Origin: Nitrospinota bacterium
GTDB lineage: Bacteria > JADFOP01
Direction: 5' to 3'
DNA length: 33,321 bases
Assembly: GCA_022562795.1 (NCBI GenBank)
Contig: JADFOP010000002.1
Location: 62,001 to 95,321, forward strand
The position numbers were made by a program, and so were the translations under genes. Every line of letters begins with the position of its first letter. Position 1 is the stretch's first letter. The notes under the pieces were generated by a model, which did not search any database, had not been told where the DNA came from, and saw nothing but the letters and a program-made list of their open reading frames with translations. Positions 14,475-32,143 of the stretch are shown piece after piece.

Positions 14475-15835
14475 CGTTTTTGGCTGCGTGCCTTACGCGC
14501 CAGGGCCCCCTGGATGGCCAGGACCTTCTCCACAACCGCCTCCGGCGAGACGCCGAGGACGCGGATCATGGGCTCCTTGCCGTGGCCGCCTGTGTCGTAG
14601 ATGACGTCGGGGACGCTGCCGGCCCGGCCGATGGCCTCTACGGTGCCCCACTCGAGGCTCGCCCCCTCGCGGCGCCTGACGGCAGGTGGCTCGTTAGAGC
14701 GGTCGAAGGCCCCGACCGCCAGCTTAACCTTCCGGCAGGCCGCGAGAATTCTCTTCTCGTAGCGGAGATTCATGGCTGCGCGTACGGACGGATCGTGGCC
14801 CATGGCCGCCAGTATCACGGCTGCCACGTGCTGGCTCGCCCCAAAGCTCGGCGGGGACACCTCCCGGACGGTCTCGCCCACCCGGTGAATTCTACCGGGG
14901 AAGGCGGCCACATCACGGCGGTCCAGCGCCTTCGGCAGGGCGTAACCCAGGTTGGTCTGGACCTCCGGCACCAGGGTGCCGATCCTAGCGGACTTGAGCC
15001 GCTCCAGGGCGGAGGTGAGACTATCTATTACGTGGGACCGGTGGAGGGCCTTGTGGATGGTCGCGGCTGGGTCGGCCGGCCCCGTACCGCCTCCGATGGC
15101 CAGCCCATGCCGGATGGCCTCGGTGACGAAGCGCTTTGCACGGTTCACCGCCTCGGCGAGCGAGGCCCCACGGGCTAGGTGGGCGGCGGTGGCCGCTGCG
15201 AGGATGCAGCCGGTGCCGTGGGTGTTGGGCTGATCGATACGCTCGGAGACGAGCTCCGTCACGGTCCGGCCGTCGAAGAAGATGTCGATGGCGCGGCCCC
15301 GCCCGTGGCCGCCTTTGACGAGCACGCTTTTGGGCCCCATCCGCTTGAGGGCCCGGGCCGCCTCGGCCATGTCAGCCATGCTCCGAAGACGCTTTCCCAA
15401 CAGAACCTCGGCTTCGGGCCTATTTGGCGTGATCACTGTGGCCAGGGGAAAGAGCCTCTCCACCAGGGTCCGGACCGCCTCGGGCATAAGAAGCGAGTCG
15501 CCGCTTTTTGCCACCATCACCGGGTCTACCACGAGATTGGGAATCCCGTGCTCGACAGCTTTCTTGGCCACGTGCTCGATTATCTCGACGTTGGAGAGCA
15601 TTCCCGTCTTTGCGGCGGCCACGGGGAGGTCCGAGCAGATGGCGTCGATCTGGCGGCCGATAATGTAGGCCGGCAGGTCGTAGATGTCGGTTACCCCTCG
15701 GGTGTTTTGGGCTGTCACAGAGGTTATAACGCTTGTCCCGAAGACTTCGAGCGCGGTGAAGGTTTTAAGGTCGGCCTGAATTCCCGCTCCGCCACCTGAG
15801 TCAGAACCCGCAATTGTAAGCGCAACGGGAATCAT
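14471..15835 (-). CDS. thiD: Bifunctional HMP/HMP-P kinase and ThiN-type thiamine phosphate synthase (ThiDN)
   Basis: IAGSDSGGGAGIQADLKT, VVDPVM, VKGGH, NTHGTGC; C-terminal domain LVPEVQTN, FPGRI, FGASQHVA, PDVIYDTGGHGKEPMIRVLG typical of ThiN. Confidence 0.9.
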   Translation of the reverse strand: MIPVALTIAGSDSGGGAGIQADLKTFTALEVFGTSVITSVTAQNTRGVTDIYDLPAYIIGRQIDAICSDLPVAAAKTGMLSNVEIIEHVAKKAVEHGIPNLVVDPVMVAKSGDSLLMPEAVRTLVERLFPLATVITPNRPEAEVLLGKRLRSMADMAEAARALKRMGPKSVLVKGGHGRGRAIDIFFDGRTVTELVSERIDQPNTHGTGCILAAATAAHLARGASLAEAVNRAKRFVTEAIRHGLAIGGGTGPADPAATIHKALHRSHVIDSLTSALERLKSARIGTLVPEVQTNLGYALPKALDRRDVAAFPGRIHRVGETVREVSPPSFGASQHVAAVILAAMGHDPSVRAAMNLRYEKRILAACRKVKLAVGAFDRSNEPPAVRRREGASLEWGTVEAIGRAGSVPDVIYDTGGHGKEPMIRVLGVSPEAVVEKVLAIQGALARKARSQKR

Positions 15836-16002: not shown

Positions 16003-17304
16003 TTATAGAGAGACCCGGTAGCCTTCCCTGGTTAAATAGCCCCATGCCCGATAGCCCTGCCGGGCCCTAGGGCTCAGGCGTCCGGCGGTCACAAACACCC
16101 GCCGATGGGTCGGGGGTTGATGCCCGACTTTTCCGACGGCATGGATCGCGCTCTCCGTCTCGGCGTCCCAAAGGACGTAGTCGGAAGGCGCGGCTACGAG
16201 CGTCGTTCCGTCGACCGTGTAGGCGACGGGCATCCCAGCAGCGATCCCCAGCCGATGGATTCGGGCTTCCTTGAGATGGTAGGAGGCGAGCATCTCGGCC
16301 GTCTTTTGATAGGAGAGGGCCGAGGCCTCGTCGGTGGCGTGCAGGGCGGCCTCGATAACGGCTCCCCGGTTGCCAACACCGCTCAGCTGCTCAAGGGCGC
16401 CTACGAGGAAGGTCTGGTGCCGAGGGGAGTATTCCGGGTGATTGATGAAGCGATCGAGGAGCTCCTGCCCAACACCCATCCACTCGAGCTTCTCCTCGTT
16501 GATGTCGGCCAGCTCCCCTGGCGACTTGTCCCTCAGGAGCGAGTTCATTGTGGCGCTGAACTTCCCGAGGCTGACCACGATACCCACCGCCCCGGGGATG
16601 AAGATGGCCCCGAGATTGACTGTTGCCTGACCCGCCGCCCGCTGGGTAGCGATGCTGTTGAGGAGGTCTTGAATCTGCGGGTTTGAGGAGTATACGTCCA
16701 CATTTAGCTCATCGGCCACCTTCCTCTTGTGCTTGGCCAGCAAGATCTCCTTCACGAATGAGTCCCGCCGCTTGCTCCGCTTCCTGCCCTTGAAGAGGCG
16801 GCCAAGTGCCGCGAACCTCTCTCCAAGCCCCTGTCCGACGGCCTTTACTGTCTCGACCGGATGGACCACAGTTCTCACCAGCGCCTCCCCCGTTGCTTCG
16901 ATGCGCTCGCCCGCGGCGTTGAGGAACTCGTACTCGTTTTTCAGCTCTACGGCCCGATCGAGTATCGATACCTCGTGGACGCGCACCTTGAGCATCTCAA
17001 GCGAGACGACGTCGTATCGTCCGTAGCGGGAACGTAGCGTAAAGTGGTAAAAGTGCCCGTCCGTCGATACCGGGTCGGCGACGGTGTGATACGGGCTTTT
17101 GCGGAGGGCCGGGGGAAGGATGTCGGCGGCCCGAAGGACCGGCGGAGCCTCGTAGGCCGGTGTCTCGTCCTGGGCCACGGACGCCGAGACTACCACGAAC
17201 AAGACCACTCCGGTGGATAGCCACGCCCCCCAGAAGCTCCAACGAGATCGGGCGGAAACGCTGATCAGTTTTCCCTCCAGCAGGAGGCGTTGAGATGGTG
17301 TCAC
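16003..17304 (-). CDS. Hypothetical exported or membrane-anchored protein
   Basis: 433 aa ORF, start overlaps lpdA stop (GTGA), N-terminal hydrophobic segment ending SVA-Q; no family recognised; start uncertain. Confidence 0.6.
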   Translation of the reverse strand: MTPSQRLLLEGKLISVSARSRWSFWGAWLSTGVVLFVVVSASVAQDETPAYEAPPVLRAADILPPALRKSPYHTVADPVSTDGHFYHFTLRSRYGRYDVVSLEMLKVRVHEVSILDRAVELKNEYEFLNAAGERIEATGEALVRTVVHPVETVKAVGQGLGERFAALGRLFKGRKRSKRRDSFVKEILLAKHKRKVADELNVDVYSSNPQIQDLLNSIATQRAAGQATVNLGAIFIPGAVGIVVSLGKFSATMNSLLRDKSPGELADINEEKLEWMGVGQELLDRFINHPEYSPRHQTFLVGALEQLSGVGNRGAVIEAALHATDEASALSYQKTAEMLASYHLKEARIHRLGIAAGMPVAYTVDGTTLVAAPSDYVLWDAETESAIHAVGKVGHQPPTHRRVFVTAGRLSPRARQGYRAWGYLTREGYRVSL

Positions 17305-18707
17305 GCTTCTCTTTTCGGCGGGATATGGATCGCCATGCCGTGGACGTCGTGGACGGCCTCCATAATGGCTTCGGACAGAGTCGGGTGAGCGTGGGTGAGG
17401 TCGCCAAGCTCAGAGGCCGTCATACCGGCGTGCATAGCGACCGCCGCCTCGTGGATGAGGTCGGCTGCGTGGTCGCCAACGATGTGGACGCCAAGAATCT
17501 GGTCGGTCTCCTCCTCGGCGATGACCTTCACCTGGCCTACCGTTTCTCCGGCGCACATGGCTTTTCCTAAGGCTCTGATGGGAAAGCGGCCCACCCGGTA
17601 TGCGAGGCCCCGCTTCTCCGCCTCCTCCTCGGTGATGCCGACCACCCCCACCTCGGGGATGGTGAAGATACCCGCCGGGACAATGTCGTAGTTCATGACC
17701 CGGTTTCGGCCCATGGCGTTCTCGGCGGCCACGATGCCCTCGGCCGAGGCTTTGTGGGCGAGCAGCGCCCCGCCAACCACGTCGCCGATGGCGTAGATGG
17801 CCTCGGTGGAGCTCTGCATCCGCTCGTTGACCACAATCTCGCCCCCCCCGGTTAAGTCAACCCCGGCGGCTTCGAGCCCAAGCCCGTCGGTGTTGGGGCG
17901 CCGTCCGATGGAGACCAGCACCAGGTCGGCCTCGACGGTCTCACCCCCCGCCAGCGTGATTAGCACCACTCCGTCCTCCTGGCGCTCGGCCTTATCCACC
18001 TTGGTGCCCGAATGGAGGGCGATCTTGCGCTTCTTAAGCTCTCGCTCGATGAGACGGCTGGTCTCGCCGTCTTCAAAGGGGAGGGCCCTCTCCATCATCT
18101 CCACCATGGTGACCCGGCAGCCGAGCTCGTGGTAGAGGAATGCGAACTCGCACCCGACGATTCCGGCGCCGATGATGAGCAGGTGGGAGGGAAGCTCCCT
18201 CAGGTTGACGGCCTCGTCGGAGGAGATTATGGATGCGCCGTCGAAGGGGAATGCAGGAATCGAAACCGGGCGGCTGCCGGTGGCGACGATGGTCTTTGCC
18301 GCCTCGACGGTCTCGGCGGCCCCGTCGGCGGCGGTCACCTCGATGGCAGTGGAACTCTTAAAGCGGGCCTGACCGTGAAGGTAAGTAACCCCCCGGCTCT
18401 TCAGCAGGGTTTGGATGCCCTTGACGAGGGTGGCGACGATCTTGTCTTTCCGGTCGATGAGGCGGCCCATATCGACCCGGGCTTCACCTTCTAATATTAT
18501 GCCGAACTCAGCCGCCTCCTTTATCTTTTTATAGACCTCGGCCGAGGCGATCATGGCTTTGGTTGGGATGCAGCCCCAGTTGAGGCAAGTCCCGCCTAGC
18601 TCGTCCTTGTCGATGAGGACCACGCGGCCTCCTAGCTGGGCCGCACGAATGGCCGCCACGTAGCCCCCGGGCCCGGCGCCGATGATGGCGAGGTCGTAGC
18701 TTGCCAT
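17301..18707 (-). CDS. lpdA: Dihydrolipoamide dehydrogenase
   Basis: GAGPGGYVAAIRAAQLG, GGTCLNWGCIPTK, LAHKA, HAHPTLSE. Confidence 0.96.
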   Translation of the reverse strand: MASYDLAIIGAGPGGYVAAIRAAQLGGRVVLIDKDELGGTCLNWGCIPTKAMIASAEVYKKIKEAAEFGIILEGEARVDMGRLIDRKDKIVATLVKGIQTLLKSRGVTYLHGQARFKSSTAIEVTAADGAAETVEAAKTIVATGSRPVSIPAFPFDGASIISSDEAVNLRELPSHLLIIGAGIVGCEFAFLYHELGCRVTMVEMMERALPFEDGETSRLIERELKKRKIALHSGTKVDKAERQEDGVVLITLAGGETVEADLVLVSIGRRPNTDGLGLEAAGVDLTGGGEIVVNERMQSSTEAIYAIGDVVGGALLAHKASAEGIVAAENAMGRNRVMNYDIVPAGIFTIPEVGVVGITEEEAEKRGLAYRVGRFPIRALGKAMCAGETVGQVKVIAEEETDQILGVHIVGDHAADLIHEAAVAMHAGMTASELGDLTHAHPTLSEAIMEAVHDVHGMAIHIPPKREA

Positions 18708-18830: not shown

Positions 18831-18862
18831 ATAGTTGACTATTTTAGACAGGAATGTATAAT
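18831..18862 (+). promoter_or_regulatory. cysK promoter overlapped by an IscR/Rrf2-type operator
   Basis: TTGACT (18835-40), 16 nt, TATAAT (18857-62). ATAGTTGACTATTTTAGACAGGAAT (18831-55) matches the IscR type-1 consensus ATASYYGACTRwwwYAGTCRRSTAT, as I recall it, at 23 of 25 positions. Confidence 0.75.
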
Positions 18863-18917: not shown

Positions 18918-19895
18918 ATGGGCCGGAAATGCTTTACAGACGCCTGCGACCTCATCGGAAACACTCCCCTGGTTAAGCTTCGCAGAACCACGGCGAAGGA
19001 CGGGGCAAACGTCTACGCCAAGCTGGAATTTTACAATCCAGGCGGGAGCGTGAAGGACCGGATTGCCCTGTCGATGGTTGAGGATGCCGAGCGACACGAG
19101 CTCCTCCAGCCGGGCTGGACGATCGTTGAGCCGACCAGCGGGAACACGGGAATCGGCCTGGCGATGGTGGGGGCGGTCAAGGGCTATCCCGTCGTGATCG
19201 TAATGCCGGAGGATATGACCTTTGAGCGGATCAACATCCTCAAGGCCTTCGGGGTTGAAGTGGTCTTAAGCCCTCCCGAGCAAGCCATGCAGGGAGCCGT
19301 GGATGAGGCTGGGCGGCTGCAGGCCGCAAACGAAAACTGGTTCATGCCACAGCAGTTCAACAACAGCGCGAACCCGGAGGTTCACCGACGGACAACGGCG
19401 AGAGAGATTCTCCGCTCCTTGGCCAAGGAGCCCATCCACGCCCTTGTAGCCGGCATCGGCACCGGGGGGACCATCACCGGGGTCGGCGAGGTCCTGAAGG
19501 GCCGCTATCCCGATCTATTAGTGGTCGGGGTGGAGCCTGCATCGAGCGCCGTCCTTTCGGGCAATAAGCCAGGGATGCACATGATTCAAGGCATCGGGGC
19601 GGGATTTATCCCGAAGGTGCTCAACCAACAGATCCTCGATGAGATAATGACCGTGACCGACGAGGATGCCTACCAGGCGGCCAAGCAGGTGGCTGCCGAG
19701 GAGGGGCTATTCGTCGGTATATCGGCTGGAGCCGCCTATTGGGCGACCCAGAAGGTAGCAGAACGGCTGGGACGGGGAGCGACGGTGGTGACCGTCTTCC
19801 CCGACGGGGGTGAGCGGTACCTCTCTTTTGAGCGGTATTTCAGTTGGCCTGAGCGGGAGGAAGTGGCCGCAGAGGTTTCGGCCGACGGTCGATAA
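18918..19895 (+). CDS. cysK: Cysteine synthase A (O-acetylserine sulfhydrylase)
   Basis: NPGGSVKDR, EPTSGNTGIG, QQFNN.AN, GIGTGGT, HMIQGIGAGFIP, DGGERYLS. Confidence 0.92.
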   Translation: MGRKCFTDACDLIGNTPLVKLRRTTAKDGANVYAKLEFYNPGGSVKDRIALSMVEDAERHELLQPGWTIVEPTSGNTGIGLAMVGAVKGYPVVIVMPEDMTFERINILKAFGVEVVLSPPEQAMQGAVDEAGRLQAANENWFMPQQFNNSANPEVHRRTTAREILRSLAKEPIHALVAGIGTGGTITGVGEVLKGRYPDLLVVGVEPASSAVLSGNKPGMHMIQGIGAGFIPKVLNQQILDEIMTVTDEDAYQAAKQVAAEEGLFVGISAGAAYWATQKVAERLGRGATVVTVFPDGGERYLSFERYFSWPEREEVAAEVSADGR

Positions 19896-19899
19896 TCCA

Positions 19900-19929
19900 T
19901 TGACGACCGCAGCGTCGTTGTGGTAGGTT
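19900..19929 (+). promoter_or_regulatory. Putative promoter for the riboswitch-controlled operon
   Basis: TTGACG-18 nt-TAGGTT with an extended -10 TGn. Confidence 0.4.
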
Positions 19930-19948
19930 CTGCTCTCCCATAGGATAA

Positions 19949-20061
19949 TCTTATCCAGAGCGGCGGAGGGACGGGCCCTTTGAAGCCGCAGCAACCGGCT
20001 CCCAGTCCGGGGAGTGTCCGGTGCTAAATCCCGCAGGGTCCCCGGACCTTGAAAGATGAGA
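19949..20061 (+). ncRNA. SAM-I (S-box) riboswitch aptamer
   Basis: TCTTATCCAGAG..GGAGGGACGGGCCC..GAAGCC.CAGCAACC...GGTGCTAAATCC..CAG...GAAAGATGAGA. P1 TCTTATC/GATGAGA, P2 GCGGC/GCCGC, P3 and P4 stems all pair. Confidence 0.95.
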
Positions 20062-20090
20062 AGACCCGGCCGGCCTAGCGCGTACGGGAG

Positions 20091-20120
20091 GCCTCTTCTC
20101 GCCCCGGGAAGAGGTTTTTT
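20091..20120 (+). terminator. Intrinsic terminator of the riboswitch expression platform
   Basis: CCTCTTCTC-gcccc-GGGAAGAGG then T6; the 5' arm (CTTCTC) can instead pair with GAGAAG at the P1 3' strand, forming an antiterminator. Confidence 0.88.
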
Positions 20121-20153
20121 GCTGGATGCCGGACCCGCTTAAGGGGAGGCGAT

Positions 20154-21392
20154 ATGAGTTTCGTCCTCGGTCTCAAATGTCGTGAGTGCTCGAGGGAGTA
20201 TCCAAAAGAGCCCCTTCACGTCTGCGAATACTGCTTCGGCCCCCTGGAGGTGGTCTACGACTATGAGGGCATCGGGAGGGTCATAAGCAGGGAGAGCATC
20301 GAGGCCGGCCCCAATAGCATGTGGCGCTACCGTCCTTTGCTGCCCATCGACGGTGAGCCCGCCGTGGGGCTCCACGTCGGAATGACCCCTATGATCCGGA
20401 CAAAACGCTTGGGCAAAGCCCTGGGGCTTAACAACCTCTACGTGAAGAACGACAGCGTCAATCACCCCTCATGGAGCTTCAAGGACCGGGTGGTCAGCGT
20501 CGCCATCACTAAAGCCCGGGAGTTCGGCTTCGAGGTGGTGGCCTGCGCCTCCACCGGGAACCTGGCCAACTCGGTGGCCGCCATGGCGGCTCAGGCGGGG
20601 CTCCAAAGCTACATCTTCATCCCCGCCGACCTGGAGGAGGGAAAGGTTCTGGGAACCCTCATCTATGGAGCGAATCTCATTGGTGTGAAGGGCTCCTACG
20701 ACGACGTCAACCGCCTCTGCAGCGAGATTGCCGCCAACTATCACTGGGCGTTCGTCAACATCAACATCAGGCCCTATTACGGCGACGGCTCCAAGACATA
20801 CGCCTATGAGGTCGCCGAGCAGCTCGGCTGGAGGGCGCCCGACAACATAATCGTCCCCGTGGCCGGCAGCTCTCTCATCATCAAGATCGACAAAGGGTTC
20901 AAGGAGCTAGCTTCCTTGGGGCTCATCCCTGAGGCCGCGTGCAAGGTCTACGCGGCCCAGGCGACCGGCTGCAGCCCCGTGACCACGGCGATCAAAGAGG
21001 GGGAAGACTTCTTCCGGCCGGTCAGGCCCAACACCATCGCCAAGAGCATCGCTATCGGAAACCCCGCCGACGGAATCTACGGCATCCGGGTAGTCAAGGA
21101 GACCGGCGGATGGGGCGAGGATGTAACCGACGAGGAGCTCGTCGATGGCATGAAGCTGCTCGCCGAGACGGAGGGCGTCTTTACCGAGACGGCAGGCGGC
21201 GTTGTCGTAGCGGTGGCCCGCAAGCTCGTCAAACAAGGGCGCATAGACAGCGATGACCTCACCGTGCTCTCCATTACCGGCCACGGCCTAAAGACTCAGG
21301 AGGCCGTTATCGGAAAGATCGGCACTCCTTTGCTCATCGAGCCGAGACTCAGCTCGTTCGTCGATATGTTTAATAACCCCAAGAAGGAGTAA
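20154..21392 (+). CDS. Threonine-synthase-like PLP enzyme; inferred O-phosphohomoserine sulfhydrylase (MetM-like)
   Basis: N-terminal CxxC..CxxC, SFKDR PLP lysine, CASTGNLA, FVNINIRPYYGDGSKT; lies after a SAM riboswitch and directly before a sulfur carrier. Confidence 0.75.
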   Translation: MSFVLGLKCRECSREYPKEPLHVCEYCFGPLEVVYDYEGIGRVISRESIEAGPNSMWRYRPLLPIDGEPAVGLHVGMTPMIRTKRLGKALGLNNLYVKNDSVNHPSWSFKDRVVSVAITKAREFGFEVVACASTGNLANSVAAMAAQAGLQSYIFIPADLEEGKVLGTLIYGANLIGVKGSYDDVNRLCSEIAANYHWAFVNINIRPYYGDGSKTYAYEVAEQLGWRAPDNIIVPVAGSSLIIKIDKGFKELASLGLIPEAACKVYAAQATGCSPVTTAIKEGEDFFRPVRPNTIAKSIAIGNPADGIYGIRVVKETGGWGEDVTDEELVDGMKLLAETEGVFTETAGGVVVAVARKLVKQGRIDSDDLTVLSITGHGLKTQEAVIGKIGTPLLIEPRLSSFVDMFNNPKKE

Positions 21393-21396
21393 CGCC

Positions 21397-21678
21397 ATGG
21401 CTATCACGGTGCGCATACCCACACCTCTTCAGGGCTTGACGCAGAACCGGGCCGAGGTCGATGCCAAGGGCAGCAACATCAAGGAGCTTGTGGAGGACCT
21501 TGATCGGCAGTATCCAGGCATCAAAGAGCGCATCTGCGACGAAACAGGCGCCATCCGCCGGTTCGTCAACATCTACCTGAACGATGAGGACATCAGGTTC
21601 ATCGATGGAGACTCAACTGCGGTCAGGGAGGGCGACGACGTCTCGATTATCCCCGCCATCGCGGGCGGCTCGTGCTAA
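21397..21678 (+). CDS. MoaD/ThiS/CysO family ubiquitin-like sulfur carrier
   Basis: VRIPTPL, RRFVNIYLNDEDIRF, IIPAIAGG followed by SC and stop. Confidence 0.93.
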   Translation: MAITVRIPTPLQGLTQNRAEVDAKGSNIKELVEDLDRQYPGIKERICDETGAIRRFVNIYLNDEDIRFIDGDSTAVREGDDVSIIPAIAGGSC

Positions 21679-21730
21679 GAGCCCTCTTAGGACTTAACTA
21701 CAAGCTTCGCATGGTGTGGAGATCAGAACC

Positions 21731-22711
21731 ATGACACACCGGGATACGAAAATTAGTATAGATAAGAAGACGTCGGTGAGCTACGGCAAGAGGCCCTACC
21801 GTGCAAGGGCTGTAGGGTTGCTTGGATGCGCGGGGCTCTTCATCTCCTTATTGGTATTTGGGGCGACGTCCTGGACCACCCTGACGGCCTGGGCGGCCGG
21901 GTATCCCAACGACCGGCTCCTGGTTGATACTACCTGGGTGGCCGAGCACGGGAAAGATGAGGGAGTGCGAATCCTCGACGTGCGACCTATTGGAGAGTAC
22001 ATGCAGGGTCATATCCCCGGGGCGGCTCACTTCGACGTGGCCCAGGTTAGGGTCGAGCGTGGCGGCGTAAAGGGAATGCTTCCTCCGCCTGAGGTGCTCA
22101 ACGCCATCTTCGGCGACCACGGGATCAGCCGAGAGAACACTGTTGTCCTATACGACGGGAAAGGAGGGCTTTGGGCCTCGCGCCTCTTCTTCGCCCTGGA
22201 CTACATGGGCCACCCCGACGCCCGCCTCCTAAACGGCGGGTGGCTGAAGTGGTCCCGTGAGAGACGGCCCGTAACCCGGGCCCCTGCGCGCGTGGAGCCG
22301 GCCACCTACCGCGGACGGCCCGACCCCGAGAAGCTTGCCGACGCCTCCTGGATAGTTGCCCACCTCAACGACCCGACCGTAAAATCCCTCGATACCCGGA
22401 GCGCGGGCGAGTATCTAGGCAAGGATGTTCGATCCGCCCGGGGAGGCCACATCCCTGGGGCCGTGAACGTCAACTGGGTCGAGAACGTAAGCGGACCGAG
22501 CATGGGCTTCAAATCCGCCGACGAGCTCCAGGCCATCTACACCAAGGCCGGGCTCACGCCGGACAAAGAGGTGGTGCCCTACTGCCAGAGCCACGTACGG
22601 GGCAGCCATTCCTACTTCGTCCTCAAGCTTTTGGGTTATAAGAAGCTCAGAGGCTACGACGGATCGTGGAATGAGTGGGGAAACCGATCGGACCTACCTT
22701 TGGGTAAGTAA
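21731..22711 (+). CDS. Two-domain rhodanese/sulfurtransferase with N-terminal export signal
   Basis: GHIPGA twice, LLNGG, active loop YCQSHVR, YDGSWNEWG; basic then hydrophobic N-region ending AWA-A; start uncertain (21716, 21731 or 21776). Confidence 0.88.
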   Translation: MTHRDTKISIDKKTSVSYGKRPYRARAVGLLGCAGLFISLLVFGATSWTTLTAWAAGYPNDRLLVDTTWVAEHGKDEGVRILDVRPIGEYMQGHIPGAAHFDVAQVRVERGGVKGMLPPPEVLNAIFGDHGISRENTVVLYDGKGGLWASRLFFALDYMGHPDARLLNGGWLKWSRERRPVTRAPARVEPATYRGRPDPEKLADASWIVAHLNDPTVKSLDTRSAGEYLGKDVRSARGGHIPGAVNVNWVENVSGPSMGFKSADELQAIYTKAGLTPDKEVVPYCQSHVRGSHSYFVLKLLGYKKLRGYDGSWNEWGNRSDLPLGK

Positions 22712-22743
22712 TGGGGAACGACACCTAACGTGGGCGGACGACA

Positions 22744-23631
22744 ATGAACCCTATGGATGATAATCCACTACTGGTGGAGACCGCCTGGCTCGACCTCAGG
22801 CGGAGGGACCAAGATCTAGTGATCTTGGATACGCGGCGACGGACTCAGTATCTGATGGGACACATCCCGGGGGCGGTGAGCTTTCCCATGCGGAAAGTCA
22901 CCGACGAGCGCTTCTGGAGCCCTGGCTTCCTCCCCAGCGAGGAGGAGTTGCGGCGGCGTCTGGGCTTGGCCGGATTCAGGCGCGACGATTATCTCGTGGT
23001 CTACGATGACGGGGACGGACTGGCAGCTTCCCGCGTCTTCTGGGCTCTTGATTACCTTGGCCACCCTAGGGTTAGCCTCCTAAACGGTGGGTTTTCCAAA
23101 TGGAGCTACGAGGGCCGGGGGCGCAGCCTTCGCCGCCACAAGAGGCCCAAGGCATCATATGAGGGGAGCCCAGTCCAGCAAAGGCTTGTGGGAGCTGAGT
23201 GGATCCACCACCGGTTGGCCAGCGGCCATGAGCTAGTCCTCATCGACTGCCGCTCAGCCGACGAATACACCGGAGCCCGCCGAAAGGCTGCCCGCTGTGG
23301 GCACATTCCCGGAGCCGTTCACGTTGAGTGGACGCGCAATCTGCGCGAGACGGGGCCCTGTCCCGTCTTTAGGGACCGCGAGGAGCTTTTGGCCCTCTAC
23401 CAGGGAGCGGGGGCCGACGATGGTTTGCCTCTGGTCACTTACTGCCAGGCCCAGGTTAGAGGGTCGCACACCTACTTCGTGTTACGCTGGCTTGGGTTTA
23501 AGGCGGTCTACGGCTACGAGGGCTCGTGGGGCGAGTGGGGCAATGACCCCCAGATGCCCATTGCCACCGGCGACGAGCCGGGACGCATTGTGGAGACCCG
23601 TGAGGGGGAAAGGGGCAAAGCGCCCTTCTGA
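22744..23631 (+). CDS. Two-domain rhodanese/sulfurtransferase, cytoplasmic
   Basis: GHIPGA twice, LLNGG, YCQAQVR, YEGSWGEWG; no signal peptide. Confidence 0.9.
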   Translation: MNPMDDNPLLVETAWLDLRRRDQDLVILDTRRRTQYLMGHIPGAVSFPMRKVTDERFWSPGFLPSEEELRRRLGLAGFRRDDYLVVYDDGDGLAASRVFWALDYLGHPRVSLLNGGFSKWSYEGRGRSLRRHKRPKASYEGSPVQQRLVGAEWIHHRLASGHELVLIDCRSADEYTGARRKAARCGHIPGAVHVEWTRNLRETGPCPVFRDREELLALYQGAGADDGLPLVTYCQAQVRGSHTYFVLRWLGFKAVYGYEGSWGEWGNDPQMPIATGDEPGRIVETREGERGKAPF

Positions 23632-23665
23632 CCAACATAACGCAAGACGATAAGGAAGAATATCG

Positions 23666-24598
23666 ATGTTGCACGCCAGAGGCCCAATGCTGAACGCCCC
23701 GCAGGATAGGGCGTGCCACATCTTGGAGCTGATAGGCAACACCCCGCTGCTGCGCCTCAACCATTTGGGGAGGGCCTTTCCCCGCGTGGAGATTTACGCC
23801 AAGGCGGAATGGATAAACCCGGGAGGCAGCATCAAAGACAGGCCCGCGCTTAAGATGCTTGAGGTGGCCGAAGAGACGGGCGAGCTGACAAAGGACAAGA
23901 CCATCCTCGACTCCACGAGCGGGAACACCGGCATTGCCTACGCCATGATAGCCAGTATCAAGGGCTACAGGGTCGAGCTCGTCATGCCAGCCAACGTCAG
24001 TGAGGAGCGCAAAAAGATAGTCACCGCATACGGGGCCAACATCATATACTCCAGTGCCTTGGAGGGCTCCGACGGAGCCCAGCTCAAAGCCAAGCGCCTC
24101 CTGGAGGAGTATCCTGAGAAATACTTTATGCCCGACCAATACAACAATGAGGCCAATTCGCTCGCTCACTACGAGACGACGGGGCCAGAGATTCTCGAGC
24201 AGACCGAAGGGACCATCACCCACTTCGTTGCTGGCCTCGGCACGAGCGGAACCCTCATGGGCACCGGCCGTCGACTAAAAGAGTTCAATCCCGACATCCA
24301 GCTCATCGCCGTCGAACCGAAGCACGCCCTCCACGGACTGGAAGGCTTAAAGCACATGGAGAGCTCCATCGTCCCGCAAATATACGATAGAAGTTTCCAC
24401 GACGAACTCATCCCCGTGAAAACCGAGGATGGATACGATATGGCCCGCCGGCTGGCTCATGAAGAGGGGCTGTTTATCGGCCACTCGTCCGGCGCCGTGA
24501 TGGTGGCGGTACTGGAGGTGGCCTCAAGGATCAAGGAGGGTGTGGTGGTCACTGTCTTTCCCGACGGAGGCGACCGCTACATTTCGACCAATTTTTAG
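23666..24598 (+). CDS. cysM: Cysteine synthase B-like PLP enzyme
   Basis: NPGGSIKDR, DSTSGNTGIA, DQYNN, GLGTSGT, GLEGLKHM..SIVP.IYD. Confidence 0.82.
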   Translation: MLHARGPMLNAPQDRACHILELIGNTPLLRLNHLGRAFPRVEIYAKAEWINPGGSIKDRPALKMLEVAEETGELTKDKTILDSTSGNTGIAYAMIASIKGYRVELVMPANVSEERKKIVTAYGANIIYSSALEGSDGAQLKAKRLLEEYPEKYFMPDQYNNEANSLAHYETTGPEILEQTEGTITHFVAGLGTSGTLMGTGRRLKEFNPDIQLIAVEPKHALHGLEGLKHMESSIVPQIYDRSFHDELIPVKTEDGYDMARRLAHEEGLFIGHSSGAVMVAVLEVASRIKEGVVVTVFPDGGDRYISTNF

Positions 24599-24645
24599 CC
24601 CCAATACCACCGCCCGGGCTTTTGCACGTCCACGGGAGGCGTCAC

Positions 24646-24909
24646 ATGGCCGAACGATTCGTTGACCTGACGGTCCCGGAAGCCATGATAAAAGAGCCGA
24701 TTATATATTCCTTGGGTCAGCAGTTCGACGTGGTCCCCAACATTTTCCGAGCCGACGTTACCCCAACGACCGGATGGGCGATCCTTCAGCTCGAGGGGGA
24801 GGAGTCTGAGATCGAGCGTGCCATCGAGTGGCTCCAGGGCCACGGCATCACCGTGAAGGTCGGAGGGGAGGAGCTGCTTCAAGCTCGCGACGAGGCCGAG
24901 GGCTCGTAA
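24646..24909 (+). CDS. Stand-alone NIL domain protein 1
   Basis: KEPIIYSLGQQFDVVPNIFRADV...GWAILQLEG...IERAIEWL...GITV; ATG behind GGGAGG. Confidence 0.82.
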   Translation: MAERFVDLTVPEAMIKEPIIYSLGQQFDVVPNIFRADVTPTTGWAILQLEGEESEIERAIEWLQGHGITVKVGGEELLQARDEAEGS

Positions 24910-24915
24910 GGTCCG

Positions 24916-25719
24916 ATGCGTGCAGAGTTCACAGAAGAAGAGATCCGTAGGTACGGTTGCCAGATGGTCCTGCCCGAGGTGGGCGACGTCGGCCAGGCAA
25001 AGCTCCGGGCCGCCGGTGTGCTCATAATCGGGGCTGGGGGTCTGGGCAGCCCTGTAGCCATTTACCTCGCGGCTGCGGGTGTGGGGAGACTCGGTATAGT
25101 GGACAGTGACGAGGTGGAGCTGTCGAACCTACATCGGCAAATTCTCCACACCGAGGAAGCCGTTGGCCGGCCCAAGGTTGAAAGCGCCCAGACTATGCTT
25201 GGGGAGGTCAACCCCCTGGTGGAGGTGCAGACCCATCCCATGCGCCTTCAGGCGGCCAACATTGAGGCCCTCATCGCCGGCTACGACGTCGTGGTGGACG
25301 GGAGCGACAACTTTCCGACCAAGTTCCTCGTCAACGACGCGTGCGTCTTCGCCGAAAAACCTCTCTCGCTGGCTGGTATTCACCGCTTTGAGGGCCAGGT
25401 GATGACCATCGTTCCAGGCCAGGGGCCCTGCTATCGGTGCATATTCATCGAGCCGCCCCCCGAGGGGGCCATCCCCAGCTGCGAGGAGGCCGGAGTCTTC
25501 GGGGCCGTGGCGGGCCTGGCCGGGTGCATTCAGGCGGTTGAGGTCGTAAAACTCATTCTGGGGATTGGGGAGCCTCTCGTCGGCTCCATCCTGCGCATCG
25601 ACACCCTCCGGGGCTCTTTTCGAACAGTCCCGGTCAACCGCAACCCCAACTGCCCCGTGTGCTCCGAGGAGGCGACCATTACGACGCTGGTGGACCAAAG
25701 CCTTGTCTGCAGCGAATAA
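24916..25719 (+). CDS. MoeB/ThiF family sulfur-carrier adenylyltransferase, no rhodanese domain
   Basis: GAGGLG, DSDEVELSNLHRQ, DGSDNF, CYRC, PSCEEAGV, CPVC. Confidence 0.9.
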   Translation: MRAEFTEEEIRRYGCQMVLPEVGDVGQAKLRAAGVLIIGAGGLGSPVAIYLAAAGVGRLGIVDSDEVELSNLHRQILHTEEAVGRPKVESAQTMLGEVNPLVEVQTHPMRLQAANIEALIAGYDVVVDGSDNFPTKFLVNDACVFAEKPLSLAGIHRFEGQVMTIVPGQGPCYRCIFIEPPPEGAIPSCEEAGVFGAVAGLAGCIQAVEVVKLILGIGEPLVGSILRIDTLRGSFRTVPVNRNPNCPVCSEEATITTLVDQSLVCSE

Positions 25720-25741
25720 CCCTCACGCGAAGGAGGCGGCC

Positions 25742-25984
25742 ATGGCCATCATCCGTGTGCAGCTTACCTTTCCTCAAGAGTCAGTCAAGCGGCCCGTCAT
25801 TTACGAGATCGGAAAAGAGTTCGATGTGGTAACGAACGTCCGACGGGCCAACGTCACGGCGACCTCGGGGTGGGTGGTGCTCGAGCTAAGCGGCGAGCGG
25901 GAAGAGATCGAGCGGGCCCTCGAAGGCTTTAAATCCCGTGGGGTGAGAGTCGATCCGGTTGAGGGTGATGTGGTCAGTCCATGA
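25742..25984 (+). CDS. Stand-alone NIL domain protein 2
   Basis: LTFPQESVKRPVIYEIGKEFDVVTNVRRANV...GWVVLELSG...IERAL...GVRV; ATG behind AAGGAGG. Confidence 0.82.
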   Translation: MAIIRVQLTFPQESVKRPVIYEIGKEFDVVTNVRRANVTATSGWVVLELSGEREEIERALEGFKSRGVRVDPVEGDVVSP

Positions 25985-25994
25985 GGTTGATTGA

Positions 25995-26432
25995 ATGTTA
26001 CGGGTTCCAAGCTCTATCGTTGAGGCCATGTTCGACCACGCTAAGAAAGAGGCTCCTAATGAATGTTGCGGCCTTCTTACGGGCAAGGACGGGCTGGCTA
26101 CACACCACTACCCGGCGACGAACGCCGATAGCAGCCCCACCACATACTCCATCGAGTCGCGTCAGCTCTTTGAGATTCATCGGGCTGCTCGCGACGCTGG
26201 GCTAGATATTTTGAGCGTCTATCACTCTCACACCATGACCAGGGCGTACCCGTCACCAACCGACGTCAACCGGGCCTTCTGGAATGGGACCGAGCTGGAG
26301 ACATACCCCGGGTGCATTCACCTGATCATTTCGCTGGCCGAGGGTGACGAGCCCGTCCTCAGGGGTTTTCGTATCCCCTCTCGAGAGACCATCGAAGAGG
26401 TTCCCGTCACGATTATCAGAGACACCACGTAA
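25995..26432 (+). CDS. JAMM/MPN+ (M67) metalloprotease, Mec-like carrier peptidase
   Basis: EAPNECCGLL and YHSHT....YPSPTD give the complete JAMM motif. Confidence 0.9.
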   Translation: MLRVPSSIVEAMFDHAKKEAPNECCGLLTGKDGLATHHYPATNADSSPTTYSIESRQLFEIHRAARDAGLDILSVYHSHTMTRAYPSPTDVNRAFWNGTELETYPGCIHLIISLAEGDEPVLRGFRIPSRETIEEVPVTIIRDTT

Positions 26433-26445
26433 GGAGACGAGCCCA

Positions 26446-26913
26446 GTGAAGTTTACCAGTCGCGGCCGGTACGCTGTGAGAGCGATGATTGATTTGGCCT
26501 ACCACACCCTGGAGCATCCCGTGAGCCTCGCCACCATTGCTGTGCGGCAGGGGATTTCGCAGCACTACCTGGAGCAGCTCTTCGTGCGGCTGCGTCGGGC
26601 GGAGCTGGTCCGAAGCGTGCGCGGGCCCGGCGGAGGCTACTTTCTAGCTAAAGAACCCATAGCGATCTCCGTACGCGACATCTTCCTGGCCGTAGACGAG
26701 TCCCTCAGCACTCCGGAGTGCGAAAAGTTGACCAATCCCGACCAGGAGCCCTGTGACCGACTCGACGAATGCGTCTCCCGAGTCATTTGGAAGAGGGTGG
26801 CCGATCAGGTGGCCCAGGCCCTTAACTCCGTCAGCCTCGAAGACCTGTGCATGGAGCGCGAGAAGCTCGACAAGAGCGAAGTCTTTTCCCACACTTACGG
26901 TTTCAACATCTAG
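26446..26913 (+). CDS. Rrf2 family regulator, IscR-like with three clustered Cys
   Basis: GRYAVRAMIDLA, RQGISQHYLEQLF, SVRGPGGGY, C-x10-C-x5-C, tail HTYGFNI; GTG start behind AAGGAG. Confidence 0.9.
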   Translation: MKFTSRGRYAVRAMIDLAYHTLEHPVSLATIAVRQGISQHYLEQLFVRLRRAELVRSVRGPGGGYFLAKEPIAISVRDIFLAVDESLSTPECEKLTNPDQEPCDRLDECVSRVIWKRVADQVAQALNSVSLEDLCMEREKLDKSEVFSHTYGFNI

Positions 26914-26930: not shown

Positions 26931-28082
26931 ATGAACGTCGGCGTGGGGGTTTCGATAAGCCGCGATGGCGCCGCCGCCGCGGCGCGAGAGGCTGCCGAGC
27001 AGGCCTTGAAGCAGGCAGGCCGGCCTAGGGCTGATGCCGCCTTGTGCTTTGCGACGCCGGATTACTTTTCTGAGGCTGACGTCCTCCTAGATGCGCTCCA
27101 GATGGCGTGCGGCACAGAATTGGTAGTGGGCGCCAGCGGCGCCGGCGTCCTGACGTCCAGGGATGAGGTGGAGGGCGCTCGGGGCGTGGTGGTCTTAACC
27201 CTCGCCTCCGAGCGGGTCGGCACGAGGCCTGTGGAGGCCTCGAACATCAACGAGGTCGGCGAGGTATGGCAAAAGAGCGTGGGTGAGGTGCCCCACGAGA
27301 CCAGCCTCTTCGTTTGTCTCTCCGACACGAACGCCATCGCCCCCGAGGAGCTACTTGCAACCATGAACGAGGTCTCTCCGGGACTGCCAGTCGTCGGGGG
27401 GGGAAGCTGCGACGATGGCTCCGGTGAGCGCGCCTTCCAGTTTGGTCCGGGAGGGGTGGTGCAGGGAGCTGTGGTCGGTTTGGCGCTTACCGGGGTGGAA
27501 GTGGACGTGGGCGTCACCCAGGCCTGCGCTCCTCTGTGTGAGCCCTATGTCATCACTCGATCTGAAGGCTCTATCGTCTTAGAACTCGGCGGTCGGCCGG
27601 CCGTCGAGGTGTTGGCCGAGGTGGTCCGGGGTCGCGACCTGAGCCGGGGGGTCTTCGCCGGCCTATCCTGCGTCGATACCCAGAGCTTCGGGCATGGGGA
27701 GTTCGTGGTCCGACCGATAACGGGTCTAGACACTTCCTGGAACAGCTTTACAGTGGCGTCGGAAATCACCGAGGGCCAGTCCCTCGTCTTTGCTATGCGC
27801 GACCCCAAGGCGGCCCGCCAGGACCTGGAGCGGCTGCTGGGGCTTAAGAGCCCGTTTGCCCGCGGAGGGTCCGGCCCGGCCTTCGGTCTCTACTTCAACT
27901 GTTGCAGCCGGGGTCGCGGCCTGTACGGCCAGAGCGGGGTCGATACGGCTCTTCTGGGGGCTTACCTGGGCGCTCTGCCGGTGGCCGGCCTATTTACGGG
28001 CCTGGAGTTTGCTCCCGTGGCCGGCCGAAATCGTCTCCAACTCTTCTCAGGGGTGCTGGCCCTCGTTCGCCCCGCCGAGTGA
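26931..28082 (+). CDS. FIST N/C domain protein (NosP-like)
   Basis: VVGASGAG, PVVGGGS, GVTQAC.P, ITRSEG..V.ELGGRPA, GLYFNCCSRG, AGLF...EFAP. Confidence 0.85.
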   Translation: MNVGVGVSISRDGAAAAAREAAEQALKQAGRPRADAALCFATPDYFSEADVLLDALQMACGTELVVGASGAGVLTSRDEVEGARGVVVLTLASERVGTRPVEASNINEVGEVWQKSVGEVPHETSLFVCLSDTNAIAPEELLATMNEVSPGLPVVGGGSCDDGSGERAFQFGPGGVVQGAVVGLALTGVEVDVGVTQACAPLCEPYVITRSEGSIVLELGGRPAVEVLAEVVRGRDLSRGVFAGLSCVDTQSFGHGEFVVRPITGLDTSWNSFTVASEITEGQSLVFAMRDPKAARQDLERLLGLKSPFARGGSGPAFGLYFNCCSRGRGLYGQSGVDTALLGAYLGALPVAGLFTGLEFAPVAGRNRLQLFSGVLALVRPAE

Positions 28083-30697: not shown

Positions 30698-30818
30698 GTC
30701 GCGTCGCCCAGACCCTGCCCGGCCACCTCCTCCTTTCCCTGCCCTGATTCTCCCTGGAGCGCTAAGCCTCCATGTGGTACCATGAGGCCCCTCTATGGGC
30801 GCGATCGGAGGAGCTACC

Positions 30819-32135
30819 GTGCGCATCGCTTTTAAAACCCTTGGCTGCAAGCTCAACCAGGTAGAGACCAACATCATGCGGGAGGCCTGTCGGGGGAGCA
30901 TGATGGAGGTGGTCCCCTTCGAGGACGAGGCCGACGTCTACGTGGTCAACACCTGCAGTGTGACGGGAAAGACCGACCGTGTGGCCCGCCAGCTGGTCCG
31001 GCGGGCGGCGGGGCAAAACCCGGAGGCGGCCATCGTCGTCACCGGTTGCTACGCGCAGCTACAGCCCGAGGCCCTGGCGGACCTGCCGGGGGTGAGGCTC
31101 GTGCTCGGAAACGAGGAGAAACACGACCTGCTCCACTACCTCGCGACCATGGAGGAGAACGGCCCAGGGGCCCACATAGCGGTGGGCGACATTGGGCACG
31201 CGAAGGAGTTCCGCTCTGCCCCCCTTCGGAGCTTCACGGGCTACACCAAGGCATTCGTCAAGATTCAGACCGGCTGCGACTTCCGTTGCACCTTCTGCTC
31301 CATCTGGACGGCGCGGGGCCCGAGCCGAAGCGAGCCGCCCGACCGAGTGCTGGAGCAGATGGCGGAGCTCGTCCAATCAGGGGTCAGGGAGATGGCCGTA
31401 ACGGGGGTCTGCATCGGCTCCTACGGCCTCGACCTATCGCCCCCGACCACGCTGGCGGCCCTCGTTAGGATGACCGAGGGGGTGGAGGGCCTGGAGCGGC
31501 TCAGGATCACCTCGATCGAGCCTACGGAGTTGACCGACGAGCTGCTGGAAACCATGGCCACCTCCCCGCTCGTGTGCCGCCACCTTCACGTCCCCCTTCA
31601 GAACGGCTCCGACCGGGTCCTGGAAGGCATGAACCGAAACTACCGAACCGACTTCTACCGGGGCCGGATCGAAGCTGCGGCGGCGCTGATGCCCGGCGCC
31701 GGAATCGGGGCCGACGTCATGGTGGGCTTTCCGGGCGAATCCGACGAGGACTTCGAGGAGACGATGGCTTTCATCGAGAGGCTTCCCATGACCTACCTCC
31801 ACGTCTTCAGCTACTCCCCCCGGCGCGGCACCCCCGCCGCCGAGCGGCCCGACCAGGTTGACCCACAGGTGAAGAAGGAGCGCTCGAAGCGCCTGAGATC
31901 CCTCGGCGAGGCCAAGCGCCGGGCCTTCATGGCCGACCAGGTAGGCCGAACGGTCCCGGTGCTCGTCGAGTCGACCCGAGACCGGAGCACCGGTCTCCTC
32001 AAGGGCTGGTCGGACACCTACGTCAAGGTCCACCTGGATGGGCCCGATGCGTGGATGGGCCGGGTCGTACCGGTGGAAGTCGCGGCCCATGCGGACGGCC
32101 ACCTCGAGGGAGTGGGGGTCGGGCAGGGCGCCTAG
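30819..32135 (+). CDS. mtaB: tRNA t6A37 methylthiotransferase MtaB
   Basis: TLGCKLNQ.E, NTCSVT, VTGCYAQ, KIQTGCDFRCTFC, SIEP, LHVFSYSPRRGT; GTG start behind GGAGGAG. Confidence 0.92.
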   Translation: MRIAFKTLGCKLNQVETNIMREACRGSMMEVVPFEDEADVYVVNTCSVTGKTDRVARQLVRRAAGQNPEAAIVVTGCYAQLQPEALADLPGVRLVLGNEEKHDLLHYLATMEENGPGAHIAVGDIGHAKEFRSAPLRSFTGYTKAFVKIQTGCDFRCTFCSIWTARGPSRSEPPDRVLEQMAELVQSGVREMAVTGVCIGSYGLDLSPPTTLAALVRMTEGVEGLERLRITSIEPTELTDELLETMATSPLVCRHLHVPLQNGSDRVLEGMNRNYRTDFYRGRIEAAAALMPGAGIGADVMVGFPGESDEDFEETMAFIERLPMTYLHVFSYSPRRGTPAAERPDQVDPQVKKERSKRLRSLGEAKRRAFMADQVGRTVPVLVESTRDRSTGLLKGWSDTYVKVHLDGPDAWMGRVVPVEVAAHADGHLEGVGVGQGA

Positions 32136-32143
32136 GAGCAGGA

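Follow-up and report, generated by a model that had tools for sequence, protein, structure and literature searches.

In Streptomyces albulus, homocysteine is formed from O-phosphohomoserine by MetM and the carrier MetO, with MoeZ as the ligase and Mec as the hydrolase (Hasebe et al. 2024, Appl Environ Microbiol 90:e0124724, as related in excerpts of PMC13759103, PMC12172450 and 10.64898/2026.09.15.751699). MetM is a ThrC homologue and, according to the excerpts of the citing papers, is "often misannotated" as threonine synthase (Hasebe et al. 2024); an S-adenosylmethionine (SAM) riboswitch lies upstream of S. albulus metM (excerpt of PMC12172450). The MetM/MetO pathway is scored in GapMind 2026; four of its supplement files contain no MetM, MetO, Mec or A0A7G1H0A1. 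A catalogue of 2006 (PMC1779556, Table 1, rows 4c and 4d) lists operon types in which ThiS/MoaD occurs with an E1 enzyme, a JAB protein and cysteine synthase. The present report concerns a related operon in a stretch of 33,321 nt from a Nitrospinota bacterium (assembly GCA_022562795.1, contig JADFOP010000002.1, positions 62,001 to 95,321 of the forward strand; referred to below as the window). In this operon, a SAM-I riboswitch is followed by nine + strand genes with intergenic gaps of 4 to 52 nt, which encode a MetM-like pyridoxal 5'-phosphate (PLP) enzyme, a ubiquitin-fold sulfur carrier, two rhodaneses, a CysM-type enzyme, a first NIL protein, a ThiF/MoeB-like E1 enzyme, a second NIL protein and a JAMM protease. 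The families, assigned with Pfam and NCBIfam, and the co-oriented order agree with those listed in a first-pass annotation of the same DNA. With a probability of about 0.7, the operon is read here as a SAM-repressed methionine-regulon unit of a Nitrospinota-like bacterium, which would make homocysteine, and probably cysteine, via a carrier thiocarboxylate. SAM-controlled synthesis by protein thiocarboxylate had already been proposed in the first-pass annotation; for homocysteine the proposal is upheld by comparative evidence, and for the cysteine role of the CysM-like enzyme it is retained as a conjecture.

The locus resembles the MetM/MetO system in its ThrC-homologous PLP enzyme, its ThiS/MoaD-type carrier, its E1 enzyme, its JAMM hydrolase, its SAM riboswitch and the presumed substrate O-phosphohomoserine. 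It differs in that the string also holds a CysM-type enzyme, two stand-alone rhodaneses, two NIL proteins and an Rrf2 regulator, in that the E1 enzyme and JAMM protease are part of the same string, in that the two PLP enzymes have a single visible carrier gene between them, and in that the host is a Nitrospinota-like diderm. Moreover, its E1 enzyme is without the rhodanese domain implied by the NCBIfam MoeZ model NF005902 (adenylyltransferase/sulfurtransferase), a domain which we take Streptomyces MoeZ to carry. The likeness to the CysM/CysO/Mec/MoeZ system of Mycobacterium tuberculosis consists in the joint presence of a CysO-type carrier, a CysM-type PLP enzyme and a JAMM protease; in contrast to that system, the CysM-like enzyme of the window resembles E. 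coli CysM and CysK as closely as it does M. tuberculosis CysM, the E1 enzyme has no MoeZ-type C-terminal rhodanese, and the operon is headed by a homocysteine enzyme and a SAM riboswitch. In the Wolinella pathway, an E1 enzyme without rhodanese is combined with MetY, an O-acetylhomoserine sulfhydrylase of fold type I, and sulfide is supplied by sulfite reductase. The residue or residues after the Gly-Gly (GG) pair of the Wolinella succinogenes carrier HcyS are presumably cut by the JAMM protease HcyD, which we assume also frees homocysteine from the adduct. The window carrier likewise has residues past GG and the window E1 enzyme is likewise without rhodanese, whereas the PLP enzyme is ThrC-like and belongs to fold type II; no MetY or other fold-type-I PLP enzyme of Cys/Met metabolism was found in the string or the rest of the window, and no sulfate-reduction genes were found in the string. 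Excerpts of the Nitrospina gracilis genome paper contain nothing on the methionine route.

The MetM-like enzyme (20154-21392, + strand) is a PF00291 protein that matches TIGR00260 at 290 bits. It has an N-terminal four-Cys zinc ribbon, and C9, C24, C27 and the PLP lysine K110 are invariant across the MetM-like alignment. When 185,579 species genomes were scanned with a family profile, at least 600 stretches were matched and at least 595 relatives were obtained. The locus counts given below refer to the best 80 of these at least 595 relatives (57-71% identity, about 15 phylum-level groups), designated by L numbers, whose loci were searched with the window proteins by tblastn and one phmmer round, then hmmsearch. 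For the ThrC-like/carrier pair picked out in the first-pass annotation, 73 of the 80 loci were found to have a carrier gene no more than 8 kb from the MetM-like gene; where the sequence extends at least 3 kb downstream, the count is 62 of 68. All 25 cyanobacterial loci carry this pair only. In a maximum-likelihood tree of 107 rows with SH-aLRT support, a 91-row MetM-like clade (support 97) comprised the window protein, the 80 locus proteins, the actinomycetotal L078, the Micromonosporaceae representative P0126 and 8 cluster representatives. In the actinomycete Nonomuraea gerenzanensis (L081), a SAM riboswitch scoring 68.7 bits is accompanied by a MetM-like gene and by a ThiS-family gene whose product ends in GG, an arrangement that matches the citing papers' account of S. 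albulus with its metM riboswitch and MetO; the window protein and the Nonomuraea protein share 51.3% identity over 99% of the length. The ThrC-like gene can therefore be regarded with good confidence, although on indirect evidence, as a MetM orthologue. The Nonomuraea sequence itself, NZ_LT559118.1, is listed in PLSDB as 'plasmid I', comprises 11.85 Mb with 10 annotated features and is evidently a replicon of chromosome size entered as a plasmid; its riboswitch, MetM-like gene and carrier gene are all without annotation.

The riboswitch aptamer (19948-20062, + strand) matches Rfam RF00162 with 85.3 bits against a gathering score of 44.4 (E 4.8e-19), over model positions 1-108 of 108 and hence over the full four-helix model, and this is the sole Rfam match in the window. 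Thirty bases 3' of the aptamer begins the hairpin of an intrinsic terminator (20092-20120, + strand), which is composed of a 10-bp GC-rich stem with a 3-nt loop (20092-20114) and six U residues (20115-20120). The 7 nt at 20058-20064, the 3' strand of P1, can be read as an exact complement of the terminator 5' arm at 20094-20100. Since the 3' side of P1 can pair with this arm, the arrangement is the classic antiterminator layout and has the anatomy of a transcription-terminating OFF switch; the expression platform appears built to switch, with the terminator 5' arm competing with P1. The SAM-I riboswitch that had been annotated ahead of the operon is thus supported by both the full-model match and the terminator.

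A cysK gene of the O-acetylserine sulfhydrylase A type (18918-19895, + strand; TIGR01139, 413.8 bits against a cutoff of 350.95) lies outside the riboswitch and ends 52 nt 5' of it. The sole strong promoter-like site of the region in the promoter scan, TTGACT-16-TATAAT at 18835-18862, is upstream of cysK. Between cysK and the riboswitch, a weak sigma-70-like candidate (TTGACG, 18 nt, TAGGTT; 19900-19929, + strand) was read by eye and scores under the scan threshold, and no terminator-like site was seen there in the terminator scan. As the promoter candidate between them is weak, transcription may start ahead of cysK and read through into the riboswitch, which would then attenuate a cysK-led transcript internally. 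An equivalent cysK synteny occurs in L001, L007, L021, L074 and seven Nitrospirota loci, and a CysK-like gene adjoins the MetM-like gene or its ThiF gene in 12 of the 80 loci. Using a covariance model built from 15 SAM-I examples, a riboswitch was located directly upstream of the MetM-like gene in 21 of the 80 loci; of the 74 loci whose upstream sequence reaches 300 nt or more, 20 have it. On re-checking with Rfam, four of four tested positives were confirmed, and no riboswitch of any family was detected in the 22 negative loci tested.

The carrier (21397-21678, + strand) is a CysO/MetO-like PF02597 protein of 93 amino acids, whose gene starts 4 nt after the MetM-like gene. Its best PDB match is M. 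tuberculosis CysO (3dwg_C, E 3.6e-22, residues 1-91), and 4n6e_B is also matched. The C-terminus reads GG-Ser-Cys; hence, two residues must go before the E1 enzyme can adenylate it, and the Mec/HcyD-like JAMM/MPN+ metalloprotease encoded at 25995-26432 (+ strand; PF14464, E 1.3e-20) must also mature the carrier. In the alignment, this protease shows the H-x-H-x7-S-x2-D motif (HSH-x7-S-x2-D) and an upstream Glu. The C-termini were read for 71 carriers among the 80 loci: 44 end in GG, 19 have 1-8 extra residues past GG (that of L009 likewise being Ser-Cys), 6 continue in frame into a NIL domain (one cut by a contig end), one is fused to ThiF and one was unreadable. The ThiF fusion occurs in L021 (11241-12300), from an Actinomycetota metagenome-assembled genome (MAG), where the carrier is in frame with a ThiF-type E1 enzyme and has no stop after GG. 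A JAMM gene was found in 16 of the 80 loci, including all five complete loci with a carrier-NIL fusion, and also beside the GG-ended carriers of L016, L017, L045 and L018. Since it accompanies both NIL-fused and GG-ended carriers, the protease fits both maturation and release. A role in maturation only was rejected on the ground that JAMM genes also occur with carriers already ending in GG, and one in release only in view of the GG-Ser-Cys tail; the product release initially assigned to the protease is kept, but not as its sole role.

The E1 adenylyltransferase (24916-25719, + strand; 267 amino acids; PF00899, 269.6 bits) consists of a ThiF domain only, matches positions 120-384 alone of the rhodanese-MoeB model NF006444, and has MoeB 1jw9 and ThiF 1zfn as PDB matches. 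The catalytic signatures of the string are intact, with the PLP lysine in both PLP enzymes, GxGxxG and both CxxC pairs in the E1 enzyme, the active-site Cys-Gln loop in both rhodaneses and the JAMM motif in the protease. Both rhodaneses are tandem-domain proteins with two PF00581 matches. Rhodanese 1 (21731-22711, + strand; alternative GTG start 21716), whose 326-amino-acid form is present in the public protein collection, has 8 K/R among residues 1-27 and hydrophobic residues at 27-45 with a 19-residue Kyte-Doolittle mean of 2.26, whereas the maximum for the other proteins of the string is at most 1.85. This basic N-terminus and hydrophobic segment point to a signal anchor or signal peptide, with catalytic domains that are probably periplasmic. 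In the N-terminal region (21731-21870), the hydrophobic core covers about 19-22 residues and is followed by an Ala-Trp-Ala site; an exported rhodanese is an odd member of a cytoplasmic biosynthetic operon.

Rhodanese 2 (22744-23631, + strand) has no N-terminal hydrophobic segment, is probably cytoplasmic and is 44% identical to rhodanese 1. Its best PDB match is RhdA of Azotobacter vinelandii (1e0c, E 5.1e-43), to which its catalytic Cys loop aligns. The likeness to RhdA extends to the tandem rhodanese fold and an aligned catalytic loop starting with Cys-Gln; the similarity amounts to about 150 bits, and the window differs in having two paralogues, one with an export or anchor segment. The role of the rhodaneses in sulfuration of the carrier is drawn from their position. 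Because the E1 enzyme is without a rhodanese domain, rhodanese 2 is the most likely sulfur donor; the first-pass annotation had cast both as donors, which is plausible for rhodanese 2 but not for rhodanese 1, with its 19-residue hydrophobic segment and probable location outside the cytoplasm. Among the 80 loci, stand-alone rhodaneses are unique to the window's own lineage. Other donor genes are present in relatives, namely DsrE/DsrF/DsrH-like genes with TusA in L002 (12357-14272), L006 (1778-7813) and L013 (4651-5575), and a rhodanese-ThiF fusion in the E1 enzyme of L018; the sulfur-donor module thus appears to be interchangeable, with the stand-alone rhodaneses filling that slot here. The counts are 19 of 80 for ThiF (8 with two copies), 3 of 80 for DsrE-like, 4 of 80 for TusA and 3 of 80 for sulfite-reductase-like genes, and L006 also has a small sulfite-reductase-like Fe-S protein. 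The idea that the rhodanese genes are a recent foreign insert was rejected, there being no sign of it in base composition (GC content 0.57-0.65 throughout).

The second PLP acceptor is a CysM-type cysteine synthase (23666-24598, + strand), which scores 372 bits with TIGR01138 (cutoff 394.2) and 364 bits with the cysKM subfamily model (cutoff 344). It shares 42% identity with the CysK encoded upstream, and its loop is shorter; its best PDB match is 9jxu (249 bits). Its substrate would be O-phosphoserine or O-acetylserine, its use of the carrier is suggested by co-occurrence with ThiF, and one carrier may serve both PLP enzymes. CysM-like genes were found in 9 of the 80 loci, and ThiF in 8 of those 9. 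Considering any cysteine synthase, 16 loci have both it and ThiF, 3 have ThiF only, 3 have cysteine synthase only and 58 have neither (Fisher p 3e-11, with loci counted as independent and without correction for phylogeny). This co-occurrence is the main argument for a cysteine synthase working with an activated carrier. The idea of two PLP acceptors around one carrier is therefore carried by comparative evidence for the MetM-like, homocysteine-forming part, and the association with ThiF makes it a reasonable surmise for the CysM-like part.

The strongest competing explanation, less probable but one to be taken seriously, is that homocysteine synthesis alone uses the carrier, and that the CysM-like enzyme takes sulfide or thiosulfate with O-acetylserine and forms, with the rhodaneses, a thiosulfate-assimilation insert that shares the transcript. 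TIGR01138 (cysteine synthase B) is in fact the top equivalog, the CysM structures of E. coli and Salmonella score like that of M. tuberculosis, and the protein has no C-terminal extension past the E. coli-type end. Both rhodanese genes are directly upstream of the CysM-like gene, their best solved relative is a thiosulfate sulfurtransferase, and the apparent export of rhodanese 1 would suit the capture of an external sulfur compound. Against this insert stand the presence of ThiF in 8 of the 9 CysM-like loci and of cysteine synthase in 16 of the 19 ThiF loci as opposed to 3 of the 61 without ThiF; furthermore, none of the 9 CysM-like loci of the survey has a stand-alone rhodanese, and a conventional CysK is already encoded just upstream.

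It is very unlikely that the ThrC-like protein is a genuine or bifunctional threonine synthase/deaminase, with the carrier serving another thio-cofactor or tRNA thiolation, even though the protein is named threonine synthase in all databases and passes TIGR00260, and a Microcystis homologue showed threonine-related activities in vitro (excerpt of PMC12172450). The window protein is 60% identical to a homologue from the genus Microcystis (L038); the protein studied, from the other species M. aeruginosa PCC7806, is 51.6% identical to MetM (excerpt of PMC12172450). A threonine synthase is at odds with the SAM riboswitch, found here and in 21 of the 80 relatives, and with the adjacent carrier in 73 of the 80. 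In the Nitrospirota loci L009, L012 and L025, the operon order is MetM-like gene, carrier, NIL, canonical ThrC and a HomK-like gene (L009, 9986-14158), the last of which encodes a phosphoglycerate-mutase-family protein/phosphotransferase. The presence of a canonical ThrC in the same operon argues that the MetM-like gene is not the cell's threonine synthase, and both consumers of O-phosphohomoserine would stand there beside its likely producer. In the tree, the four canonical ThrC paralogues from the same loci (34-37% identity) are outside the MetM-like clade and group together with support of 100. In addition, Pfam revealed no molybdopterin, thiamine or tRNA-thiolation genes in the operon, and genetic and biochemical proof for Streptomyces MetM is reported in the excerpts of the citing papers. 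Still more improbable is a sampylation-type protein conjugation by the carrier and E1 enzyme with the JAMM protease as deconjugase: the nearest NCBIfam names are SAMP1, UbaA (the SAMP-activating E1) and desampylase, all under cutoff, but the operon has two PLP enzymes of beta/gamma replacement, sulfurtransferases and SAM regulation, the closest solved relative of the carrier is CysO, and no E2-like or proteasome gene was found in the window.

Several observations weigh against the reading of the operon as a unit of carrier-dependent homocysteine and cysteine synthesis. The two other Nitrospinota loci (L001, L002) are without the riboswitch, membership of the MetM family was assigned from gene context and intermediate sequences, and the locus counts come from the best-matching relatives. 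The Microcystis homologue is described as a threonine synthase/deaminase in vitro, and methionine was not raised in vivo (excerpt of PMC12172450). The scores of the CysM-like enzyme are near-equal for E. coli CysM (229 bits), M. tuberculosis CysM (3dki, 226 bits) and M. tuberculosis CysK1 (227 bits). Rhodanese 1 is probably exported or membrane-anchored and would be outside the cytoplasm; a stand-alone rhodanese was found in none of the 80 related loci, and it is operon position that connects the rhodaneses with the carrier. Finally, the absence of metA/metX, metB/metY/metZ and a separate thrC was established for the window only.

The two NIL genes are located on either side of the E1 gene, NIL1 at 24646-24909 (87 amino acids; PF09383, E 2.6e-15) and NIL2 at 25742-25984 (80 amino acids; PF09383, E 2.5e-15), both stand-alone and on the + strand. 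Their starts were placed at the ATG after a GGAGG-type ribosome-binding site, and the proteins so defined have exact copies in the public protein collection; that of NIL1 is labelled 'NIL domain-containing protein' in MAG records. Each scores 56.5 bits in Pfam against a cutoff of 24, and they are 50% identical to each other. With a NIL2-family profile, the methionine-binding domain at the C-terminus of E. coli MetN (3dhx) was matched along its whole length (E 6.6e-10), with the N-I-R-x-A segment of the NIL family aligned to the N-I-I-S-A segment of MetN, whose Asn we take to be needed for methionine binding. As in MetN and in MA1822, the NIL/ferredoxin subunit of L-aspartate-semialdehyde sulfurtransferase, the proteins belong to PF09383 and occur in a context of methionine supply; unlike these, they are free, 80-87 amino acids long and present in two copies, with no ABC ATPase, ferredoxin or COG1900/DUF39 partner. 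The NIL domain was reported as binding methionine and controlling the activity of enzymes (excerpt of PMC12068725), and its role in the homocysteine pathway of DUF39 and NIL/ferredoxin was described as unknown (PMC5764234). A link between NIL and ThiS/MoaD carriers was not found in a literature search that left out most subscription journals, and ThrC, NIL, CysO and rhodanese are not mentioned in PMC1949818.

NIL genes accompany the carrier in 34 of the 80 loci, in 6 of them fused after GG, in 26 adjacent and in 2 farther away. The carrier-GG-NIL fusions of 171-190 amino acids are located at L003:11275-11790, L004:11288-11803, L006:3020-3535, L007:6334-6906 and L013:3326-3856, and that of L010 (3041-3474) is cut by the contig end. 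When a profile of five fused proteins was searched against 5.8 billion proteins and 8000 candidates were scored, 6155 of these matched at E <= 1e-10; the best 120 listed all have both PF02597 and PF09383 and bear the name 'molybdopterin synthase sulfur carrier subunit' or 'MoaD family protein'. Such fusions are frequent in metagenomes. With the single 80-amino-acid NIL2 as query, no fused relatives of greater length were found, and an Atlas search with NIL2 gave other stand-alone NIL clusters only. In the Nitrospinaceae locus L002 (14481-15032), a tandem NIL-NIL protein of 183 amino acids is immediately followed by an Rrf2 gene, which suggests that NIL1 and NIL2 of the window pair with each other. 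The NIL pair, first singled out as unusual, therefore turns out to belong to a widespread companion of the carrier and, in some lineages, its fusion partner. On the basis of fusion and adjacency, NIL is probably a methionine-sensing partner of the carrier; that it is a dedicated one, shutting off sulfur loading at the carrier or E1 enzyme when methionine is plentiful, is a tentative idea that is rather unlikely to hold in full. If it did hold, the carrier-GG-NIL precursor of several phyla would need a JAMM cut before activation, like ubiquitin fusion precursors, and NIL would add feedback at the protein level to the SAM riboswitch and would be a shared regulator of two unrelated non-canonical homocysteine pathways, the carrier route and that of DUF39 and NIL/ferredoxin.

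From the observed anatomy of the switch, the gene content, the motifs and the comparative associations, we infer each chemical step of the following scheme. At high SAM, the aptamer would lock P1, the terminator would form and transcription would stop ahead of the first gene. When the operon is expressed, the JAMM protease would remove Ser-Cys from the carrier to expose Gly-Gly, and the ThiF/MoeB-like E1 enzyme would adenylate the terminal Gly. Rhodanese 2, being RhdA-like, would most likely deliver a persulfide sulfur to give an acyl-persulfide that is reduced to the thiocarboxylate. The MetM-like PLP enzyme would join the thiocarboxylate to O-phosphohomoserine, and the CysM-like enzyme would join it to O-phosphoserine or O-acetylserine. 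The JAMM protease would then hydrolyse the adduct of carrier and amino acid to homocysteine or cysteine with regeneration of the carrier. NIL1 and NIL2 would probably pair as a heterodimer with methionine or a related compound as its ligand and exert feedback on the carrier or E1 enzyme, and the Rrf2 protein would add transcriptional control. Rhodanese 1, probably exported, falls outside this scheme; the source of the sulfur and the role of the Rrf2 protein are predicted from sequence and context.

The Rrf2-family regulator (26446-26913, + strand; PF02082, E 9.3e-38) is encoded 13 nt past the JAMM gene. It is IscR/CymR-like, the closest models being IscR (144 bits) and CymR (102 bits), both under cutoff, and has three cysteines spaced C-x10-C-x5-C. 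Rrf2 genes flank the MetM-like operon in 5 of the 80 loci; in L004, L006 and L013, all without riboswitch, the position is immediately upstream of the MetM-like gene, and in L002 and L007 it is downstream. The Rrf2 gene of the window probably belongs to the operon unit, and the string, for which the gene content given in the first-pass annotation (19949..26432) is correct, does not end at 26432. The Rrf2 gene is followed after 17 nt by the gene of a stand-alone sensor-domain protein with FIST_N and FIST_C (26931-28082), which has a counterpart in none of the 80 loci. More co-oriented genes are present beyond it, and in terminator scans no terminator-like site was seen between the downstream genes before about 33166. 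Among them, at 30795-32962, a MiaB-like gene of the radical-SAM methylthiotransferase type (UPF0004 and Radical_SAM) extends over the beginning of a SAM hydroxide adenosyltransferase-family gene (PF01887/PF20257); both products are SAM-using and both genes are on the strand of the operon. Upstream, two open reading frames on the - strand, of 527 (12891-14474) and 433 (16003-17304) amino acids, gave no Pfam match at E <= 1e-8 and neighbour a ThiD-ThiN fusion gene (14471-15835) and a dihydrolipoyl dehydrogenase gene (17301-18707).

Exact copies of the operon proteins are present in public MAGs labelled Nitrospinota, Nitrospinae or Tectimicrobiota, where consecutive accession runs correspond to the same gene order in close relatives. 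The public names are generic, being threonine synthase, sulfurtransferase, cysteine synthase family protein, NIL domain-containing protein, MoeB and M67 metallopeptidase. The MetM-like enzyme, carrier, NIL, ThiF, JAMM and CysM-like enzyme occur all together in L003, L004, L006 and L013, that is all but the rhodaneses, and public genomes often hold the layout in nearly complete form. Both the core chemistry and operons of the type ThiS/MoaD, E1, JAB and cysteine synthase have already been published. The first-pass annotation knew of no characterised operon with this full layout including a NIL pair; the operon is not outside known systems, the pathway having been published in 2024 and included in GapMind 2026. 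Distinctive are the joining of the MetM/MetO and CysM/E1/JAMM modules under one riboswitch, the stand-alone rhodaneses, one of them probably exported, and the split NIL pair bracketing the E1 gene. What is new, and most worth pursuing, is the link of NIL with the carrier, including the precursor-like fusions.

The locus represents a compact natural kit of switch, carrier, E1 enzyme, sulfur donor, two acceptors, protease and regulators, which suits reconstitution and the question of whether a single carrier can feed two PLP enzymes. The NIL-carrier link offers a testable role for NIL outside the MetN transporter. If the proposed route is correct, the synthesis of homocysteine from O-phosphohomoserine and a protein thiocarboxylate would be no curiosity of Streptomyces but a widespread source of methionine, used in Nitrospinota, Nitrospirota, Cyanobacteria, Verrucomicrobiota, Chloroflexota, Planctomycetota and others. 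As its genes are annotated there as threonine synthase and as a molybdopterin-synthase subunit, predictions of methionine auxotrophy in those groups would then be wrong.

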